Origin: Eubacteriales bacterium
GTDB taxonomy: Bacteria; Bacillota; Clostridia; Oscillospirales; CAG-272
Reading direction: 5' to 3'
Length of the DNA stretch: 36,049 nucleotides
Assembly: GCA_045643765.1 (NCBI GenBank)
Contig: JAZRFS010000193.1
Location: 1 to 36,049 of the forward strand
Shown here: positions 737 through 30,520 of the stretch, piece by piece
Layout of the letters: the number at the start of each line of letters is the position of its first letter
Numbering within the stretch: position 1 is the stretch's first letter
Translations under genes and position numbers: made by a program
Notes under the pieces: generated by a model
Databases searched by the model: none
What the model saw: the letters and a program-made list of their open reading frames with translations, nothing else
What the model was told of the DNA's origin: nothing

Positions 737-1072
737 TCAAAGCTCCACCACGGTCACACCGTGGTTGGAAACACGAAGCAGAGGCTCTAAATCTCGGCAT
801 TTATTTTTAAGGGCAAGGGCATCAAAATTGAACAGAGTGAAGTCCTCACCGAAGATCACCTGCTTTACCTTGCCGCCACGCTCCTGGGCTTTGAGCCATT
901 GGCGCGCCTTCTGGCAGATGGCTCCACCCTTTCCCGTGCTGCCGTAGCCATGTACGATCAGCACCACGTCGTATTTATCGCGCTTCAAGCGCGTGATAGA
1001 GTCCTGTAAATAGCGCATCGCGTCTGCCACGATGGGCATGTCCTCTTTGATGTTGATTTCGGTATATCTCAT
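737..1072 (-). CDS. Stand-alone Smr (small MutS-related) domain protein, 111 aa, divergent N-terminal motif
   Basis: The ORF track protein contains VVLIVHGYGSTGKGGAICQKARQWL (Smr HGxG core) and a C-terminal NHGVTVVEL strand, and aligns by eye to E. coli SmrB/MutS2 Smr domains. A GGAGG RBS sits directly after the upstream rSAM stop. Confidence 0.75.
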   Translation of the reverse strand: MRYTEINIKEDMPIVADAMRYLQDSITRLKRDKYDVVLIVHGYGSTGKGGAICQKARQWLKAQERGGKVKQVIFGEDFTLFNFDALALKNKCRDLEPLLRVSNHGVTVVEL

Positions 1073-1081
1073 AAATCCTCC

Positions 1082-2455
1082 TCAAAAGATGATCTCAAAT
1101 GGCAGTTTTTCGGGTTCACAACACGCCACGTCATTTTCAAATTGCTCGTACGTATATCCTCTTTCGAAATATGAGACGGATTTCACGTCATAATAATCCT
1201 TTTGCGTCATCATCAAGCGAGAAATGGCACGGCAAATCTTTTTAGCAGCTTTGCTGTCTATTTCATCACTCAAATCAAGATCCACAAAACCATGGTCGTT
1301 CACAACATACCCATCCGGCACTCTCGCACCTTGCTCAAGCAGATCTTCCAGCAATCCGCTTCCCTTGTAATACACAAGACTGCTTGCCGCAACGCCTTTG
1401 ATAAGATGCCTGTGCTTTTTTAGCCAGCGCACCGTTTCCTCAACCGTTTCATTTGTTTCTCCTGCAAAAAGCAAAATGTTAAGCTTTACCCACACGTTAT
1501 GCTTTTGACATTCTTCTAAAATTTTCAGCGCCCTTTCAAGATATTTTCCCGGGCATTTCGTTTTGTTCATTTTCAAAAGCTGTGTCGGGCTCGCACTTTC
1601 CAATCCGATATCCAATATTTTCAATCCGGTGGCGGCAAGCTTGCCAATCATTTCTATCGGAACACTTTCCACTCTTGTGGTGCAGCGCCACGAAGTGATT
1701 TTTTGGCGCTTTTTCATCTCTTTTACAAGCTCTTCGCACCACGCCTTGTTAAAATGAAAATGAGGTGCTTCGAGATAAACCGAATAATTGCCGTATAGGT
1801 TATCTAAATAGTCGAGCTCTCGCATTACACTTTGAACCGATTTGTTTTGCAAGCGCTTGTTTTTGCCATCTGCACAAAAAGCACACCCCGAGCCACAGCC
1901 GCGCGAAACTTCAATGCTCGGCTGATAAAGCTTGTAGTCAAGCAACAGCTCGTAATTCAAATGTTCAAAGCAACACGTAGCACCGTCTTCCACAAGCTCG
2001 CTCTTTTCCGGGCAAAAGCGCTCTGCCATCTTCTTTTCTCCGAAGCCCTCAATGATCTCGTCTACGTATTTCAGTTTATCTTTCACCCATTCGGCGTTAT
2101 TGTCTACGACCCAACGCCCGCCAACGATGATCTTTTTTCCGTATTTCTCCTTGGCGATCCGGCAAAATTCCGCGCACCACGTTACGGAATAGTAGCTTGG
2201 AATCGACAGCAAAAAGCACTCACATTCCTCCGATATGTCAATGCCCTCTTTTTCTATCCTTTCAAAGAGCGCTGGAGGCGATTTCTGATCTCCTTGGACA
2301 ACAAGCACATTCAGCCCCAAATTGTCGTGCAGTATGGTGGCAAGACCCAAAAGTCCGTAATTCAAGTAACGAATACGGCCTTTTATGAGGTCCGTGCCTT
2401 TTTTGTAATCATACTGCCCCGCCGACACTGCAATAATTTTCTTAATAATAGACAT
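1082..2455 (-). CDS. B12-binding-domain radical SAM protein (class B rSAM), 457 aa
   Basis: The radical SAM CX3CX2C cluster motif is present in SRGCGSGCAFCADG. The N-terminal ~140 aa form a Rossmann-like region (KKIIVGGRWV) typical of the cobalamin-binding domain. No Cys-rich SPASM/twitch tail is present. AAGGAG RBS before the ATG. Confidence 0.88.
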   Translation of the reverse strand: MSIIKKIIAVSAGQYDYKKGTDLIKGRIRYLNYGLLGLATILHDNLGLNVLVVQGDQKSPPALFERIEKEGIDISEECECFLLSIPSYYSVTWCAEFCRIAKEKYGKKIIVGGRWVVDNNAEWVKDKLKYVDEIIEGFGEKKMAERFCPEKSELVEDGATCCFEHLNYELLLDYKLYQPSIEVSRGCGSGCAFCADGKNKRLQNKSVQSVMRELDYLDNLYGNYSVYLEAPHFHFNKAWCEELVKEMKKRQKITSWRCTTRVESVPIEMIGKLAATGLKILDIGLESASPTQLLKMNKTKCPGKYLERALKILEECQKHNVWVKLNILLFAGETNETVEETVRWLKKHRHLIKGVAASSLVYYKGSGLLEDLLEQGARVPDGYVVNDHGFVDLDLSDEIDSKAAKKICRAISRLMMTQKDYYDVKSVSYFERGYTYEQFENDVACCEPEKLPFEIIF

Positions 2456-2742
2456 TTTTCTCCTTTCTCAAAATAAGCTCACTAAAATTCAACAAAGACG
2501 TTCAAATCGACAGAAGAAAAAAGCAAACCTCCTTACGACAGATTGTGAAAAGGACAAAAAAAGTCTGCAATCCTTCGATCGCAGACGCTTAATACCAAAA
2601 ATGAAGACAGCTTCCCCATTGGTTAAATGCCTGCGACAAAAAGACTCAACAAAAGCATGGTGGAGATACTGCAAAGTCTGTCAGGTTTGCAGTAGTGCCT
2701 CCCGGATTGCCGAAGCAACCGCTTAAGTCGCTATTTACTTGT
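2456..2742 (-). promoter_or_regulatory. Long structured 5' leader of the rSAM-Smr operon (riboswitch-like or attenuator, class unassigned)
   Basis: About 290 nt separate the consensus promoter from the ATG. Closing helix: GCGAC (2727-2731) pairs with GTCGC (2633-2637). It encloses a UUCG-tetraloop hairpin (2705-2720) and a 7-bp hairpin CTGCAAA/TTTGCAG (2669-2692) extended by GGAGG/TCTCC. A terminator follows. Confidence 0.55.
2556..2588 (-). terminator. Intrinsic terminator inside the rSAM 5' leader (attenuator)
   Basis: Minus strand reads GTCTGC-gatcgaaggatt-GCAGAC followed by TTTTTTT. It lies ~100 nt upstream of the rSAM ATG and downstream of the promoter. Confidence 0.7.
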
Positions 2743-2748
2743 ACACTC

Positions 2749-2777
2749 ATTATAACACGAGCTTTTCCCCTTGTCAA
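2749..2777 (-). promoter_or_regulatory. Sigma-70/SigA-type promoter of the rSAM-Smr operon
   Basis: Minus strand reads TTGACA, a 17-nt spacer and TATAAT, with an extended TGn (gTGtTATAAT). Both hexamers match the consensus perfectly. Confidence 0.75.
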
Positions 2778-2950
2778 TACACTTTTGGAAAATTATGGAA
2801 ATTTTGTCGTTCGGTAGCCTTTACAACGACTGCTACGCGTACCTAAAAGAAAAAATGTCCGTCCCTTTTCTATCATTTTTCTGACATTTTTCCAAATAAA
2901 AGGGACGAAACGGGGTGATTTTGCCCATTTTTCGGAGTAAACTGTGACGA

Positions 2951-3028
2951 GGAGGGACAATATGGCGATGGTCGAAATCTCGTAGCTGTTAACGCGGCGC
3001 GTGGGTTCAAATCCCACCTTCTCCGCCA
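2951..3028 (+). tRNA. tRNA-Ser-like gene, apparently degenerate (possible CGA anticodon; D-arm region shortened)
   Basis: The 3' two-thirds is clearly tRNA-Ser-like: variable arm GCTG-TTAACG-CGGC, T-arm GTGGG-TTCAAAT-CCCAC, acceptor 3' strand CTTCTCC, discriminator G and encoded CCA (3026-3028). The 5' strand GGAGGGA pairs only imperfectly. The anticodon stem has a mismatch and I could not fold a normal D-arm by hand. Confidence 0.45.
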
Positions 3029-3034
3029 AGCACT

Positions 3035-3071
3035 GGCGCAGCACATTTTGTGTTGCGCCTTTTGCATTTTT
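3035..3071 (+). terminator. Intrinsic terminator downstream of the tRNA-Ser-like gene
   Basis: 10-bp stem GGCGCAGCAC-atttt-GTGTTGCGCC followed by TTTTGCATTTTT. Confidence 0.8.
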
Positions 3072-3091
3072 AAGACTAGATTTTGCCCGTA

Positions 3092-3120
3092 TTTACAAAT
3101 GCTAATATATGTGCTATAAT
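3092..3120 (+). promoter_or_regulatory. Promoter of the plus-strand four-gene operon
   Basis: TTTACA, a 17-nt spacer and TATAAT with an extended TGn (gTGcTATAAT). A second, similar -10 box (TGcTACAAT) lies at 3203-3212. Confidence 0.6.
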
Positions 3121-3242
3121 AACCTTACTCCCACTCTCACTTAACTTTTTGAAACTAATAACCCAAAATACATTTTGAGTGCATTCCATTATTTTTTTGC
3201 ATGTGCTACAATTTAGACACCGACAAAACAGGAGGCCCTCAA

Positions 3243-3560
3243 ATGACAATCAAAATTCTCTGCAAAATTACCGAACAAGGCACCCATTCCTTCTTCCTGA
3301 AAAAAGATCACACGGACTACTATCTTTTTTCTCAAAATTATCGCAAAGGCGTGCACAAGTATTACGCCCGTTCCGTTCCTTTCAACGAAGCAATTGACTT
3401 CTCCAGATCTAAGCAAGACTCCGCTATACTTCGCACTATGGAGAAAATCAGAACCCATGCAAAATATGTTGAAAAGCAGTACAACATCATTATTTGTCAA
3501 AAAAGCCAAAAACGTAGAAACATTCATCCATTTGATTTCAATGATCGTTTCTATGCTTAA
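3243..3560 (+). CDS. Small conserved hypothetical protein (105 aa from the RBS-supported ATG)
   Basis: An AGGAGG RBS 7 nt upstream of ATG 3243 makes the track start at 3201 unlikely. Sequence begins MTIKILCKITEQGTHSFFLKKDHTDYYLFSQNYRKGV..., with a basic tail KSQKRRN. I recognise no domain. Confidence 0.7.
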   Translation: MTIKILCKITEQGTHSFFLKKDHTDYYLFSQNYRKGVHKYYARSVPFNEAIDFSRSKQDSAILRTMEKIRTHAKYVEKQYNIIICQKSQKRRNIHPFDFNDRFYA

Positions 3561-3572
3561 TCGGAGGAAATC

Positions 3573-4688
3573 ATGGAAATACGAAATTTCATTTATAGCT
3601 TTTCATTAGATCCTAAAGCAACGGGAAGCAAAATCAAAAATCTCAGAAAATCTAAAAAAATGACAGCCGAAAAGCTCGCAGAAACATTACTTTGCTCCGT
3701 GAAAACCGTCTCTTCCTGGGAAACTGGCACACGTTTCCCCTCCCTAGATGCACTTGTGGATCTGGCCAACCTTTTTGACATAAGTGTTCACTCTTTGATG
3801 CTTCCGTTTGATAACTGTTCAGAATCCCCCATCAAAAGCCCTAATCCTAACGATTATTCCGTTTTTGACTCCGCTTATTCAATTGGCCTGACCGACGACG
3901 AGATAACTCAAACCCTTTTTATAAGAGAAGAATATTTGATCCAACGACTGCTTTGCGATGTATTTACCAACCAAAATCAATGCGAATTGGAAGCACTCGC
4001 CTATGCGTTACAACGCACACCCGTTCGTGAACTCCCCTCCCTAAAAAATAACACCGCCGATGCTTTTTGGAAATTTAAAAAAGAGCATTTTTATCATTCA
4101 CAAACGGCATCCATATTATTTAACCGCATTCTTCGCGGCGAATGCTTTCCTAACACCTTGAACGCGATGGATCTATTTGAAAAATGCGTGTTTTTAACTA
4201 TGCTTTGCTATTTCCCCGAATTTCGGAATTGGGACTGTGCAAAGATGCTATATGAAACCGGTGCACGCTTTATAGATTGTCAATTCTCCTCCAATGCCGA
4301 AAAAATTAAGCAGTTTTCCCTTAAGAAAGAGCAAGAGCGCCTATTTAACGTTCACGCCGCCACCATTACATCCGAAGAAGAACTATTATGCTTTTGGGGC
4401 CTAGACCCACATATGAGCGAAGAACGAAAAAACAAGTGGTTGGGCTGGTTAGAGACACCGAGATATAAAGACAATCCTGATTATTATGATAAAAAAATTC
4501 TCCGCATGGTCACTGATAATTGCGGAGACCCAGAAGAACGCAAAACGTTGGCAAAATATTATTCCGTTTTTGATTTCATCATTGACACCGTGGAAAGCCT
4601 GGATGATTTTGCGAAACGCCGCGTGGAAGCAGATATGTGCTTTGAAGAATATATTGAACTTTTGTTGGAAAGAGGTGCGGTCTCATGA
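3573..4688 (+). CDS. XRE-family HTH protein with a ~300-aa uncharacterised C-terminal domain (371 aa)
   Basis: N-terminal HTH_3 signature IKNLRKSKKMTAEKLAETLLCSVKTVSSWETGTRFPSLDALVDLANLFDISVHSLM. GGAGG RBS. The stop overlaps the next start (ATGA at 4685-4688). Confidence 0.85.
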   Translation: MEIRNFIYSFSLDPKATGSKIKNLRKSKKMTAEKLAETLLCSVKTVSSWETGTRFPSLDALVDLANLFDISVHSLMLPFDNCSESPIKSPNPNDYSVFDSAYSIGLTDDEITQTLFIREEYLIQRLLCDVFTNQNQCELEALAYALQRTPVRELPSLKNNTADAFWKFKKEHFYHSQTASILFNRILRGECFPNTLNAMDLFEKCVFLTMLCYFPEFRNWDCAKMLYETGARFIDCQFSSNAEKIKQFSLKKEQERLFNVHAATITSEEELLCFWGLDPHMSEERKNKWLGWLETPRYKDNPDYYDKKILRMVTDNCGDPEERKTLAKYYSVFDFIIDTVESLDDFAKRRVEADMCFEEYIELLLERGAVS

Positions 4689-5611
4689 TAAATAAAAAAG
4701 TTTTAAGTCATATGGCAACCGGGCGATTTATCAGAGAAAAACGCACAGAGTTGAATCTCACCCAGGACGAGCTCGCGCTAAAACTCGGTATCACCAAAAA
4801 CGCCATTTCCAACTGGGAAAACGCAAACGCATTGGTAGACGTGAAGTATCTGATCCCGCTCAGCAATATTTTCAGCGTTAAAGTTGATGAGCTCCTATTT
4901 CCGAATACCCTTACCCCAAACGAAAATTCTTATTCCGATATCAGCACGCAATTCATAAAAATGACCCGCTTTGAGATCACGGATCCCAAACTGTGCAAAA
5001 AATTATTGGATATGTTTGTGGATTGCAAGATACTTCTTACCAACCTGATAAAAGAATACCAGTCCACGCGCGACGAAAAGATACTGCTTCAAATTTTACA
5101 AGAAAACAAATTCGGTTTTGGTTTCTTCCGCTTTGAAGAACCACTTGACCGCGCAGCCCTGGAAAACACTTTAGACAAAACGTTCTCCGTAGAGGACCAA
5201 TTACAAACGATATGGGAGCCCTTCTTGTCTAGTAGTCAAGCCTATGCAGAAGAAATCAATGAAAAAGGCATTCATGTCTCTCGCATTTTTTTAGATGAAG
5301 ATTATGTATACAATTATATAGAAACAAAAGACGGACGCGGACACGGCATGTCTTCCAACATCGCTATGGCAAACTTTATCTTTGATTTTGGCAACGAACG
5401 AATTTTCAGAAAATTCATCTCCACTTTCAGCCAAAAATACAAAAATGACATTCTGTTTAATTTGCATTATTTCATTAAAGAAACCAGAACTCATGCAATT
5501 CCCACTCACCAGGAACGCAAGGCCATGAAATATCTGCTTCGTGCCGGAGCAGAGCTTTGGGTAGACGGCGAAAATCAAACAAAGAAGCTTATGCTGTACG
5601 TGTTCAATTAG
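4685..5611 (+). CDS. XRE-family HTH protein with a ~240-aa uncharacterised C-terminal domain (308 aa)
   Basis: HTH_3 signature IREKRTELNLTQDELALKLGITKNAISNWENANALVDVKYLIPLSNIFSVKVDELL. Translationally coupled to the upstream XRE gene. Confidence 0.85.
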   Translation: MINKKVLSHMATGRFIREKRTELNLTQDELALKLGITKNAISNWENANALVDVKYLIPLSNIFSVKVDELLFPNTLTPNENSYSDISTQFIKMTRFEITDPKLCKKLLDMFVDCKILLTNLIKEYQSTRDEKILLQILQENKFGFGFFRFEEPLDRAALENTLDKTFSVEDQLQTIWEPFLSSSQAYAEEINEKGIHVSRIFLDEDYVYNYIETKDGRGHGMSSNIAMANFIFDFGNERIFRKFISTFSQKYKNDILFNLHYFIKETRTHAIPTHQERKAMKYLLRAGAELWVDGENQTKKLMLYVFN

Positions 5612-5623
5612 GAGTTATGGTAC

Positions 5624-6538
5624 ATGAATAAAACAGACATTTTATTCCCCCTCCGCAAGCAGTACAATAGTCATTGTTGGCGTTGCAAAAGCCCCATTTC
5701 TTCCCTCTACTGTGAACAATGCAGTCACTGCAATTGGTATGTTTGCACCGTTTGTGGTTCTTGTTACTTAGGACAATGTACTTTTGCAACGTGTGGCTTT
5801 GATGAAAACGGTCTGCACCGCAATGGCACGAAATTTTCGGATAAAGGTTTTGATGTAAGAGGTTTCGACATCGAAGGTTTTGACCAATACGGTTATAATC
5901 AATACGGCTATGACCGCACCGGCTATGATAAACACGGTTATAACCGAAGCGGCTACGACCATGACGGGTTTGACAAATACGGTTACGATTGTGATGGATA
6001 TGACCGTAGCGGATTCGATTATGATGGCTATGATAGAGAGGGCTACAACAGCCGTGGATACGATCGCAACTTATTAAACCGCGATGGCTACAATCCAGCG
6101 GGTTTTGACAAAGACGGTTATGATAAAAACGGCTACAATAAGGATGGCTTTGATAGAAACGGTGTAAACCGTCAAGGCATTGACAAAAAAGGCCTTGATG
6201 CAGAATGGCGCAGTTTAATCAAGCGCAGGGTGGCTTATATAAGTGCAGGTAATAACATAAAAAAAGGAACTATAATTGACTGCTATATCCGAGCCCAAAC
6301 TTACTATGTTGACGTACAATTCGATGATGGTGTAATCTATCGCAAAATTGATTTCAACCACACTCGTTCCATAGGGATTTTAAAGTTTTTGATAAAGAAA
6401 TCAAAAGGCTACACTTATAAACAATTTGAAACCCCGCCCCATATGGGGCGTCTACTTTGTTTATTCTCCCTCCTCCAACACCTCGTCGGCGAGACTGCGC
6501 ATTGGAAGGTGCTGGCGGCATCCTACGTGGCACATTGA
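5624..6538 (+). CDS. Cys-rich zinc-ribbon protein with 24 G-[YF]-[DN]-x-x pentapeptide repeats and a small beta-rich C-terminal domain; the 3' tail is probably chimeric
   Basis: AGGAG RBS. The N-terminus has ten Cys in CxxC-type spacing (CWRC...CEQCSHC...CTVCGSC...C...C). Residues 75-194 are pentads in perfect register. The last ~36 aa read through the hairpin and antisense of an integrase remnant after an abrupt composition change at ~6430. Confidence 0.8.
   Translation: MNKTDILFPLRKQYNSHCWRCKSPISSLYCEQCSHCNWYVCTVCGSCYLGQCTFATCGFDENGLHRNGTKFSDKGFDVRGFDIEGFDQYGYNQYGYDRTGYDKHGYNRSGYDHDGFDKYGYDCDGYDRSGFDYDGYDREGYNSRGYDRNLLNRDGYNPAGFDKDGYDKNGYNKDGFDRNGVNRQGIDKKGLDAEWRSLIKRRVAYISAGNNIKKGTIIDCYIRAQTYYVDVQFDDGVIYRKIDFNHTRSIGILKFLIKKSKGYTYKQFETPPHMGRLLCLFSLLQHLVGETAHWKVLAASYVAH
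5846..6205 (+). repeat. Coding tandem repeat, 15-nt period (24 pentapeptide units)
   Basis: Units are GFDVR GFDIE GFDQY GYNQY GYDRT GYDKH GYNRS GYDHD GFDKY GYDCD GYDRS GFDYD GYDRE GYNSR GYDRN LLNRD GYNPA GFDKD GYDKN GYNKD GFDRN GVNRQ GIDKK GLDAE. Synonymous codons vary between units (ggt/ggc/gga/ggg, tat/tac, gat/gac). Confidence 0.9.
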
Positions 6539-6704
6539 GAAGATGTTCGCTGTGGCGGAGATGTTGCGGTGTCCAAGCCACTGTTGGATCAGCTTCATCT
6601 ATACGTCCTGCGCGACAAGGAGCGACGCGCAGGGCGTGGAAGCGCATGTGCTTGATGCCATTCTGCCGCAGAGGATGCTTGGTGTGATCACTCTGCCGCC
6701 GAAA
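6461..6704 (-). pseudogene. Tyrosine recombinase (phage-type integrase) C-terminal remnant, frameshifted with an internal stop
   Basis: Minus-strand frames read ...LRQNGIKHMRFHALR, then after a frameshift ASLLVAQDV*MKLIQQWLGHRNISATANIFSMCHV... This matches the integrase box II region (xFHDLRH...LLxxGVDxKxIQxxLGHxxIxTTxNIYxHV). The catalytic Tyr position is F, the N-terminal ~80% of the gene is missing, and its hairpin CGCCCC-atat-GGGGCG lies at 6435-6450. Confidence 0.6.
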
Positions 6705-7625: not shown

Positions 7626-7665
7626 AAAAAGCGCCCGGCGCTTTGGGCGCGGGGAGCTTTTTCGT
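7626..7665. terminator. Hairpin terminator between convergent genes (best on the minus strand)
   Basis: GCGCCC-ggcgcttt-GGGCGC. On the minus strand it is followed directly by TTTTTCGCC. On the plus strand the T-run is displaced. Confidence 0.6.
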
Positions 7666-7679
7666 TTCAATGTTCAAAA

Positions 7680-8186
7680 TCAAGCCAGGAAGCCTGCTTC
7701 CTTCAATGCCTTCTCTACGTTGTCCAGGGTCTCCTTCTTATCTGCCATTACGGTGTGGGAGTGCTTACCGCCCGTAATGCTCATCAGCTCGACGGAGGTG
7801 CCGTTGCGCACGCCATCCAGGAACTTGTCGATGTGGCGCTTGTTGTGGATATTCAAGGGAGCCGAGATCTTGCCGTAGACCTTATGCTCAACAAACACGT
7901 CCTTGACAATAGCGCCCTGCGCAATGATCAAAGCCAGCTCATCCTCGGTCTGCTCTTGCGTATGCGTGACGTTAAACACGCGCTCGAGAAGGGGGGTTGC
8001 CTTGAGCACGTAGCCGTAGTGCGTTGCCTGGATCTCGTAGCCCTGCTCGCGCAGCGTAGCGATATCCTGCACCACGATCTGTCTGGATACACCAAAGCGC
8101 GCGGAAAGCGCATCACCGGACACTGCGGCGTTGGCGTTAGCCAAAAGAACTGCCATTTCTTTTCTTCTGTTTTGTGCCTTCATCAT
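7680..8186 (-). CDS. niaR: NiaR/YrxA-type transcriptional repressor (HTH + 3H domain)
   Basis: MMKAQNRRKEMAVLLANANAAVSGDALSARFGVSRQIVVQDIATLREQGYEI is an HTH_11-like region. The C-terminal part with conserved His residues (HTQEQ..., GGKHSHTV) resembles a 3H domain. A GAGGTG RBS supports the ATG at 8186 rather than the track start at 8273. Confidence 0.75.
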   Translation of the reverse strand: MMKAQNRRKEMAVLLANANAAVSGDALSARFGVSRQIVVQDIATLREQGYEIQATHYGYVLKATPLLERVFNVTHTQEQTEDELALIIAQGAIVKDVFVEHKVYGKISAPLNIHNKRHIDKFLDGVRNGTSVELMSITGGKHSHTVMADKKETLDNVEKALKEAGFLA

Positions 8187-30443: not shown

Positions 30444-30520
30444 TGGTGGAGACAGTTGGAATCGAACCAACGACCTCATGCATGTCAAGCATGCGCTCTA
30501 ACCATCTGGGCTATGCCTCC
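30444..30520 (-). tRNA. tRNA-Val (anticodon GAC)
   Basis: The reverse complement GGAGGCATAGCCCAGATGGTTAGAGCGCATGCTTGACATGCATGAGGTCGTTGGTTCGATTCCAACTGTCTCCACCA folds as a cloverleaf. Acceptor GGAGGCA/TGTCTCC, anticodon arm CATGC-TTGACAT-GCATG, T-arm GTTGG-TTCGATT-CCAAC, encoded CCA. Confidence 0.9.

Follow-up and report, generated by a model that had tools for sequence, protein, structure and literature searches.

In phage λ, the repressor gene cI is co-transcribed with the exclusion genes rexA and rexB near the att/int end of the element, RexB being a membrane protein, and in Staphylococcus aureus pathogenicity islands (SaPIs) and phage-inducible chromosomal islands (PICIs), the repressor Stl is an integrase-adjacent XRE protein whose C-terminal domain could sense foreign proteins. 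RosmerTA offers a further precedent, in that its antitoxin RmrA, a helix-turn-helix (HTH) protein with an ImmA-peptidase domain, is a conserved partner combined with many effectors (PMC10440598). Here, we describe a four-gene cassette (genes g1 to g4) in a 36,049-nt stretch of DNA, hereafter the window, from Eubacteriales bacterium (CAG-272; assembly GCA_045643765.1, contig JAZRFS010000193.1, positions 1 to 36,049, forward strand). The cassette is a rare mobile unit consisting of an invariant leader, a three-gene core (g1, g2, and g3, hereafter the trio), and a swappable fourth gene. Judged by analogy with the systems above, its layout appears to be that of mobile defence or exclusion cassettes, and an abortive-infection or defence role is plausible from architecture only.

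All four genes are encoded on the forward strand and are tightly packed: g1 (3243–3560) encodes 105 amino acids (aa) with a basic tail ending in -YA, g2 (3573–4688) encodes 371 aa, g3 (4685–5611) encodes 308 aa, and the g4 open reading frame (ORF; 5624–6538) encodes 304 aa as read in the window. The g1/g2 and g3/g4 junctions each span 12 nt, the start of g3 lies over the stop of g2 in a 4-nt overlap, and an AGGAGG-type ribosome-binding site (RBS) precedes each gene; an alternative start of g1 at 3201, giving 119 aa, lacks one. Downstream of the native part of g4, a hairpin terminator (6435–6450, +) marks the operon end, its stem kept in L004, the closest relative of the window locus, with changed bases. 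Upstream, a hairpin with an 11-bp stem and a T run (3035–3059, +), also found in L004, closes a tRNA fragment and insulates the cassette from transcription entering from that side. GC content is 0.39–0.43 across the cassette versus 0.50–0.61 in most of the window. Searches of g1–g4 with Pfam, NCBIfam, PHROG, and PADLOC found no domain other than the HTH, assigned by Pfam as HTH_3 at residues 21–72 of g2 and 16–70 of g3 and followed by C-terminal domains of ~290 and ~230 aa, respectively. Much of this had been described in an initial annotation of the same DNA, which proposed an AT-rich four-gene operon behind a good promoter, encoding a 105-aa protein with a basic tail and two coupled XRE proteins with large non-HTH domains, without a recognizable enzymatic domain, from a decayed mobile element beside a tRNA remnant; each of these points was confirmed here.

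The trio recurs as a unit, with g1, g2, and g3 standing in one order in every locus retrieved. These number about 12, all metagenomic (L004/5, L006, L007, L104–106, L107–109, L149, L150, L151–153, and L025, with L024 partial), and all comprise a gene of ~102 aa, an XRE gene of 341–418 aa, and an overlapping or abutting XRE gene of 276–320 aa. In profile searches across 153 loci (L001–L153), no member of the three families turned up apart from the other two, except for one g1 paralogue and one g1 pseudogene. The initial annotation had named a lack of such co-conservation as grounds for abandoning its proposal, and for g1–g3 the gene order is instead kept elsewhere. Beyond HTH-level similarity, the cassette was not found in one genome each of 185,579 GTDB species, nor in IMG/VR, INPHARED phages, or PLSDB plasmids, with the exception of the g1 pseudogene in INPHARED.

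The fourth slot is occupied by at least four unrelated proteins, among which the zinc-ribbon protein of the window, with its GYD repeats (described below), is found only here and in L004/5. A helicase is the commonest occupant. In L007, L104–106, L149, and L150, it is a HelD-like superfamily 1 (SF1) helicase of 918–958 aa, present as two types that are 28% identical; in L006 and L151, the place is taken by a UvrD helicase (1025 aa) that is unrelated to the HelD-like type, bears two Top1-type zinc ribbons, and is followed by a MORN/TPR protein. In L107–109 and L025, the slot instead holds a 454-aa glycine-zipper membrane protein that is TPR-like and acidic-tailed. The earlier suggestion that the repeat protein is the partner of the XRE pair stands insofar as it is the fourth gene of the unit here, and fails insofar as unrelated proteins take its place elsewhere. 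In PADLOC, the helicase payloads match GajB-like models, the glycine-zipper payload weakly matches LeoBC and PDC-M09A, and a neighbour of the cassette in L150 matches PDC-M09B.

Comparison of paired loci indicated that the core and its payload have travelled separately. Between the window and L004, nucleotide identity is 55–80% in the trio, 83–97% in g4, and 92% in a flanking radical-SAM gene, and the jump at ~5650 coincides with the g3/g4 junction; L104 and L007 show the same pattern. Taken gene by gene, nucleotide identity to L004 is 89% for g4 and 64–73% for g1–g3. This mosaic identity, broken at g3/g4, implies separate recombination histories for core and payload. L104 and L105 share a stretch of 93% identity that opens 184 bp before g1 and closes at the stop codon of the fourth gene, and they are unrelated outside it. 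Every gene with measurable dS gave a dN/dS of 0.07–0.14 (synonymous sites of g1 and g2 are saturated between the window and L004, such that no ratio is computable for them), and the genes measured are thus functional and under purifying selection.

A 150-nt leader is conserved along with the trio. We aligned the 160 nt 5′ of g1 from 11 loci and found that the first promoter (P1, 3092–3120, +; TTTACA-17-TGcTATAAT, an extended −10 with an upstream TG and an 11/12 consensus match) keeps its position and spacing in 11 of 11. At or just past the P1 start site lies box A (ACTCCCACTCTCACTTAAC; 3127–3145, +), which occurs once in the window and may serve as an operator or as the 5′ half of a stem in the leader RNA. 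Its family consensus is AACTCCCAC(G/T)C..GTTAAC, and every trio locus, even the divergent L150, keeps the CTCCCAC core unchanged. Box B (AAAATACATTTTGAGTGCATTCC; 3165–3187, +) is partly complementary to box A and has the consensus AAAAT(T)ACAYT.TG.GTGAGTT, kept in all aligned loci; it lies over the −35 region of a putative second promoter (P2), for which an extended −10 (TGCTACAAT; 3204–3212, +) is visible. The P2 motif, TG-n-TA[CGT]AAT, stands at equal distance from the start codon in all aligned loci, while a promoter scan requiring both hexamers lists no site at 3204–3212. The order P1, box A, box B, P2 extended −10, and RBS holds even in L150.

Two roles can be considered for the boxes. 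A 9-bp pairing between them, which includes three compensatory pairs, is kept in 89% of alignment cells; for three measures of two-sided change, the observed values were reached by 15–46 of 500 shuffles, compared with 26 of 500 for the percentage paired and 80 of 500 for further pair types. RNAalifold assigned the leader an energy of only −3.5 kcal/mol, and an Rfam search found no structured-RNA family in it; a leader RNA stem, with weak folding signal and borderline covariation, is possible. The recognition helices of both XRE proteins, on the other side, are invariant across the family (S-x-K-x-x-SSWETG in g2 and K-x-A-x-SNWEN in g3), which, together with the placement of the boxes over the P1 start and the P2 −35 region, favours operator sites for autoregulation over an RNA stem. 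Neither box occurs upstream of the g1 paralogue in L004 that lacks an XRE pair, where tandem TGATATAAT promoters are found instead; this absence is as expected if the boxes go with the XRE proteins. We therefore favour the operator role, as a prediction from sequence.

Within the trio, g1 is the most conserved member, with a mean column identity of 73% across trio loci and conservation along its whole length. It looks cytoplasmic, with no signal sequence by inspection. Its wider family comprises 221 clusters at 50% identity among 1.84 billion proteins, all of ~100 aa, and we found no Pfam or PDB sequence match and no family name in any source searched. No toxin family was assigned to g1 by Pfam, NCBIfam, or PADLOC, none of 55 relatives matched a Pfam toxin either, and no conserved residues look catalytic. 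Many family members end in -YA, -CA, -AA, or -LAA, which we take, speculatively, to resemble ClpXP degrons. The XRE genes are not the only partners of the family, given that the L004 paralogue (101 aa, 41% identical to g1, ending in -PLAA) is encoded immediately upstream of an ADP-ribosylglycohydrolase. A 2439-aa protein first considered a g1 relative (P0224) was rejected as an RCC1-repeat false positive.

Homologues of g2 and g3 are fewer, forming 28 clusters and 16 full-length clusters, respectively, all metagenomic. Both families combine a conserved HTH with a strongly divergent C-terminal domain. The predicted structures are confident (AlphaFold pLDDT 88 for g2 and 89 for g3) and contain beta strands. 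Foldseek matched only the HTH, both for g2 against PDB and BFVD (TM ≤0.23) and for g3 against PDB, and profile searches of the two against PDB sequences likewise returned HTH matches alone. Neither protein contains HExxH; among 40 family members there was no peptidase or TPR match in Pfam, the family alignments hold no conserved His outside the HTH, and Foldseek found no peptidase fold. The C-terminal domains of g2 and g3 are not homologous to each other as far as hhalign can tell, aligning through the HTH alone, and g3 showed no homology to the glycine-zipper protein with which the GYD relatives described below are paired. Pfam, PDB, and BFVD thus hold no match to g1 or to either XRE protein outside its HTH. 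The first five residues of g2, MEIRN (3573–3587), precede the HTH and are invariant or nearly so in 24 relatives, which could reflect a translation-coupling constraint with g1 or an N-terminal functional motif.

These features place the cassette near, and outside, each of the systems introduced above. As in RosmerTA, a conserved XRE partner of ~370–400 aa with an N-terminal HTH is associated with many unrelated upstream or downstream effectors on mobile DNA, and after HTH_VI, the best PADLOC matches of g2 (residues 16–84) and g3 (11–75) are RmrA models. These matches cover the HTH only, and membership in RmrA was rejected on that basis; unlike RosmerTA, moreover, the cassette lacks an ImmA/IrrE (M78) zinc peptidase, has four genes where a toxin–antitoxin pair has two and a core of three genes rather than one, and carries helicase payloads. 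As in λ cI-rexAB, and in prophages whose exclusion genes lie between integrase and repressor, HTH genes are co-transcribed with a payload at an att/int end, and one payload class is a membrane protein, whereas the S24 self-cleavage domain and divergent cro of λ and prophage cI-Cro regions are missing and all four genes are co-directional. Unlike prophage immunity regions, the cassette has no full-length relative in IMG/VR, and in INPHARED only the g1 pseudogene was found, on a bacterial-looking scaffold. Finally, the conserved HTH and fast-diverging C-terminal domain of an integrase-adjacent XRE repressor recall Stl of the SaPIs and PICIs, from which the cassette differs in having two co-directional repressors plus g1 and no replication, packaging, or interference genes.

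The payload in the window is g4, an exchangeable protein whose native part spans 5624–6411 (+, 262 codons). It begins with a Cys-rich zinc module, predicted to be binuclear (nt 5672–5794, +; 10 Cys and 2 His in residues 17–57), continues with an array of 25 G[YFLIV][DNH]xx pentads (nt 5795–6205, +; residues 58–194), and ends in a small beta domain of ~65 aa (nt 6203–6400, +). Eight of the 10 Cys are invariant in its relatives (P0002–P0008 and P0030), implying two Cys4 sites. The remaining 42 codons of the ORF (6412–6538, +) are a read-through extension and not native protein: TAA in L004, where the orthologue ends at 262 aa, has become TAC at 6409–6411 in the window. The extension runs through the terminator hairpin at 6435–6450, such that transcripts ending there would have no stop codon, and to judge from the sequence, the stop loss may be a first step of payload decay.

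The relatives of g4 share its pentad array and C-terminal beta domain, and most carry an additional N-terminal beta domain and an acidic-aromatic tail. In L001–L003, the genes before them are not the trio but encode a small HTH-like protein and a glycine-zipper membrane protein of 340 aa. This unit of three, ending in the full-length GYD protein, occupies 6648–9344 of L001, where it adjoins a tRNA-Lys, and 80–2584 of L003, where it adjoins DUF488 and DuOB genes; the glycine-zipper proteins of L001 and L003 are 55% identical. Outside the Gly-rich segment, the glycine-zipper proteins of L001 and L107 showed no homology. Hidden Markov models (HMMs) of the GYD N- and C-terminal beta domains matched no helicase or glycine-zipper protein, leading us to reject an adaptor domain shared among fourth-gene products. 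Acidic-aromatic tails of the L107 glycine-zipper protein (2454–3818; DDYDGWDYDDD) and of P0002–P0004 (EENWDYDED) are similar, a likeness that hints at an interaction motif shared among payloads. The pentads themselves are very widespread. They are fused to SWIM, DUF4145, Amidoligase_2, DZR, and VirB10-like modules, occur in bacterial lipoproteins and in secreted proteins with signal peptides (P0007–P0120), contribute several hundred residues to a 1711-aa protein on a viral contig (L160, 5688–10823), and appear on contigs of giant-virus metagenome-assembled genomes (e.g., L155, 380–1141). Our literature search found no description of G-[YF]-[DN]-x-x repeats.

The surroundings of the cassette are those of a decayed integrative island. 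Just upstream lies a tRNA 3′ fragment (2960–3033, +), Ser-like with a long variable arm, in which only the T-arm, the acceptor 3′ strand, and CCA are detectable; Rfam matched a tmRNA/tRNA T-arm at 3000–3017 and ARAGORN found no complete tRNA at 2960–3033. The fragment is kept alongside the cassette in L004 and is a probable att-site remnant of the island. (The sole complete tRNA gene of the window, tRNA-Val(GAC) at 30444–30520 (−), is unrelated to it.) tRNA genes or fragments also adjoin the cassette in L006 (Ser), L104 (Glu), and L108 and L025 (Met), and in L150, an intact tyrosine integrase is encoded directly upstream of g1. On the far side of the window cassette, 6461–6647 (−) may be a frameshifted remnant of a tyrosine-recombinase C-terminus: an LGHxxxxxTxxxF motif was recognized by eye and the stretch is conserved in L004, but the assignment is unconfirmed, with no match by Pfam, by phmmer against PDB sequences, or by tblastn with the L150 integrase. 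Direct repeats of 39 nt with 82% identity flank the cassette in L109 (97–135 and 4818–4856), and L006 carries duplicated tRNA-Ser fragments (7641–7694 and 7812–7865); both are consistent with att-site duplication by site-specific integration, and neither locus includes an integrase. Neighbouring genes vary, among them Fic, FRG, an S24 peptidase with HTH_36, 23S_rRNA_IVP, and the PDC-M09B-like gene, and the flanks of the cassette loci contain no phage structural, replication-initiator, or conjugation genes, nor any phage genes within ±8 kb.

The g1 pseudogene, interrupted by an in-frame stop, comes from a scaffold deposited as ‘Bacteriophage sp.’ (L148; MT835511.1, 17289–41561). The region looks like a bacterial defence island and encodes BrxL (BREX), a WYL-WCX regulator, a triad of vWA, PP2C, and Ser/Thr kinase genes, and a large SF1 helicase.

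Our preferred reading, held tentatively and with somewhat less than even confidence, is that the islands are small, target tRNA genes, and carry a sensor/regulator core that controls its own expression and gates an exchangeable effector, in defence or exclusion. Under such a scheme, box A, at the P1 start site, and box B, over the P2 −35 region, would be the binding sites through which g2 and g3 hold operon expression down. The C-terminal domains of the two proteins, with g1, would receive a signal, whose likeliest source would be an incoming phage or other mobile element, and release of repression, or direct protein–protein activation, would then deliver the payload: the zinc-binding GYD-repeat protein here, an SF1 helicase or the glycine-zipper membrane protein elsewhere. 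The cassette might in this way act in defence or exclusion as λ cI-rexAB does, or with partner swapping of the RosmerTA kind. We count in favour of this scheme the operon anatomy, the association of one trio with four unrelated fourth genes, and the mosaic identity, together with the conserved boxes over both promoters (and their absence at the g1 paralogue), the contrast of invariant recognition helices with divergent C-terminal domains, and the PADLOC hints among payloads. The pairing of GYD relatives with a glycine-zipper protein, the g1 pseudogene in a BREX island, the tRNA and integrase adjacency, the purifying selection, the stretch shared by L104 and L105, and the RosmerTA precedent point the same way.

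Several observations weigh against it. The cassette is known from about 12 loci, all of them metagenomic, and relatives of g1 are found without the XRE pair as well. Only through the generic HTH and the helicase core do any of the components match PADLOC models. No activity is predicted for the GYD protein, which, given its stop-loss extension in the window, may be decaying. The commonest payload, a helicase, could serve replication of an element rather than defence. The operator role of the boxes is itself a prediction, and their complementarity may instead reflect a leader RNA stem, and the adjacency to integrase and tRNA genes fits a purely mobile-element regulatory role equally well.

That last alternative, the main rival though in our view rather unlikely, holds that the genes form a regulatory module (for immunity, maintenance, or induction) of small tRNA-targeting integrative elements or satellites, the rest of the element having decayed in the window; g2 and g3 would be repressors with Stl-like sensor domains, g1 an accessory regulator, and the fourth gene an element function such as a replication helicase, or neutral cargo. 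The L150 integrase, the tRNA genes or fragments at the window, L006, L104, L108, and L025, the L109 repeats, and the prevalence of helicases would all be expected of such elements, as would a retained HTH with diverged C-terminal domains and synonymous saturation, a pattern resembling heteroimmune repressor alleles. True heteroimmunity, however, would diversify the operators and recognition helices, which are here invariant. The loci do not consistently carry a replication initiator, relaxase, excisionase, or packaging gene, the four genes alone are common to L104 and L105, the cassette is not found in IMG/VR, and the helicase can be replaced by a glycine-zipper or GYD protein, which implies that no single element function is tied to the fourth slot. 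An addiction module of the toxin–antitoxin type, with g1 as toxin or labile factor, the XRE proteins as antitoxins or autorepressors, and the fourth gene as an add-on, appears improbable to us. As in HigBA and MqsRA, a small first gene is tightly coupled to an XRE gene and autoregulation is likely, to judge by the boxes; the g1 family is broad, swaps partners (including the ADP-ribosylglycohydrolase of L004), and has the degron-like C-termini noted above, which we presume could mark a labile protein; and there are weak HTH matches of the MqsA, HigA, and HipB types. These matches are nevertheless to the generic HTH only, g1 is unrelated by sequence to known toxins and lacks conserved catalytic-looking residues, and two large antitoxins with a fourth gene would be unusual for a toxin of 100 aa.

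The remaining alternatives fare worse. That g2 and g3 might be peptide-sensing quorum regulators of the RRNPP type (Rgg, PlcR, ComR, AimR-like) is suggested by an N-terminal HTH_3 joined to a large, mostly helical C-terminal domain (230–290 aa) and by the best Foldseek PDB matches, which are ComR, PlcR, Rgg2, and PrgX. With TM-scores of 0.16–0.23 and rmsd of 15–21 Å, however, only the HTH superposes on these structures, the models include beta strands, and the locus contains no small ORF for a secreted peptide, g1 having no signal sequence. On the TM-scores and the absence of TPR matches we rejected an RRNPP/TPR identity, and consider the idea scarcely credible. The initial annotation had further entertained a DNA-mimic role for g4 and an anti-defence role for the module, here framed together as a Qnr/MfpA-like pentapeptide beta-helix under XRE control. 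Its description of g4 as a zinc-ribbon, pentapeptide-repeat protein was borne out as regards the 10 Cys and the period-5 repeats, which are rich in Asp/Asn and aromatics and, like those of PF00805 (Qnr, MfpA), stand in tandem; weak tblastn matches in phage genes labelled ‘pentapeptide’ (25% identity, E about 1e-5) can be added. It was not borne out as regards the family: the pentads match no Pfam family (E ≤ 0.1), Pentapeptide families included, and their G-aromatic-D/N-x-x register differs from A(D/N)LXX. Neither the DNA-mimic nor the anti-defence part finds support: the cassette was found in neither IMG/VR nor phage records, and secreted proteins, lipoproteins, and proteins of virion size contain GYD repeats as well. 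We consider this reading very improbable. We give equally little credence to the possibility that there is no functional unit, and that ordinary host regulators happen to lie beside unrelated genes. The family is admittedly small and known from metagenomes only, but gene order, coupling, and leader are the same in ~12 loci with unrelated flanks, and the genes are under purifying selection.

Returning to the gated-effector reading, a bolder extension of it, possible but in our view doubtful, would make the trio the core of undescribed anti-phage or anti-mobile-element immune cassettes, in which a pair of sensor-repressors, aided by a small cofactor that may be labile, would detect infection and unleash one of several plug-in effectors (a HelD-like helicase, a UvrD-Top1-zinc-ribbon helicase, a glycine-zipper pore, or a zinc-ribbon GYD-repeat protein), and would make the GYD array a new, widespread repeat fold. 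If true, this would add a three-component control core, none of whose components belongs to a known family, to the modular conflict systems of bacteria, from uncultured gut and rumen Clostridia that are thinly covered by defence-system screens; our literature search for two-XRE cassettes returned nothing relevant. With four unrelated payloads behind one leader and regulator set, nature would also have run an effector-swapping experiment of its own. The G-[YF]-[DN]-x-x pentad merits flagging in its own right, being common in bacterial, phage, and giant-virus proteins and lying outside Pfam families.

Among the neighbours of the cassette in the window, the radical SAM protein (457 aa, of the B12-binding type) is followed by an Smr-domain protein (111 aa) at 737–2455 (−), where the DNA is likewise AT-rich (GC content 0.44); the former has a weak PADLOC match to the candidate system PDC-M51A (E = 3e-7), and its gene flanks the cassette in L004 too. 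There, seven extra genes (879–6024, −) are found between the radical SAM gene and the cassette that do not occur in the corresponding part of the window (2572–2946). Besides those for the g1 paralogue and the ADP-ribosylglycohydrolase, the seven include genes for a membrane protein, a small HTH protein, and a DEDDh exonuclease with a possible BRCT domain (a marginal Pfam match, E = 0.1).

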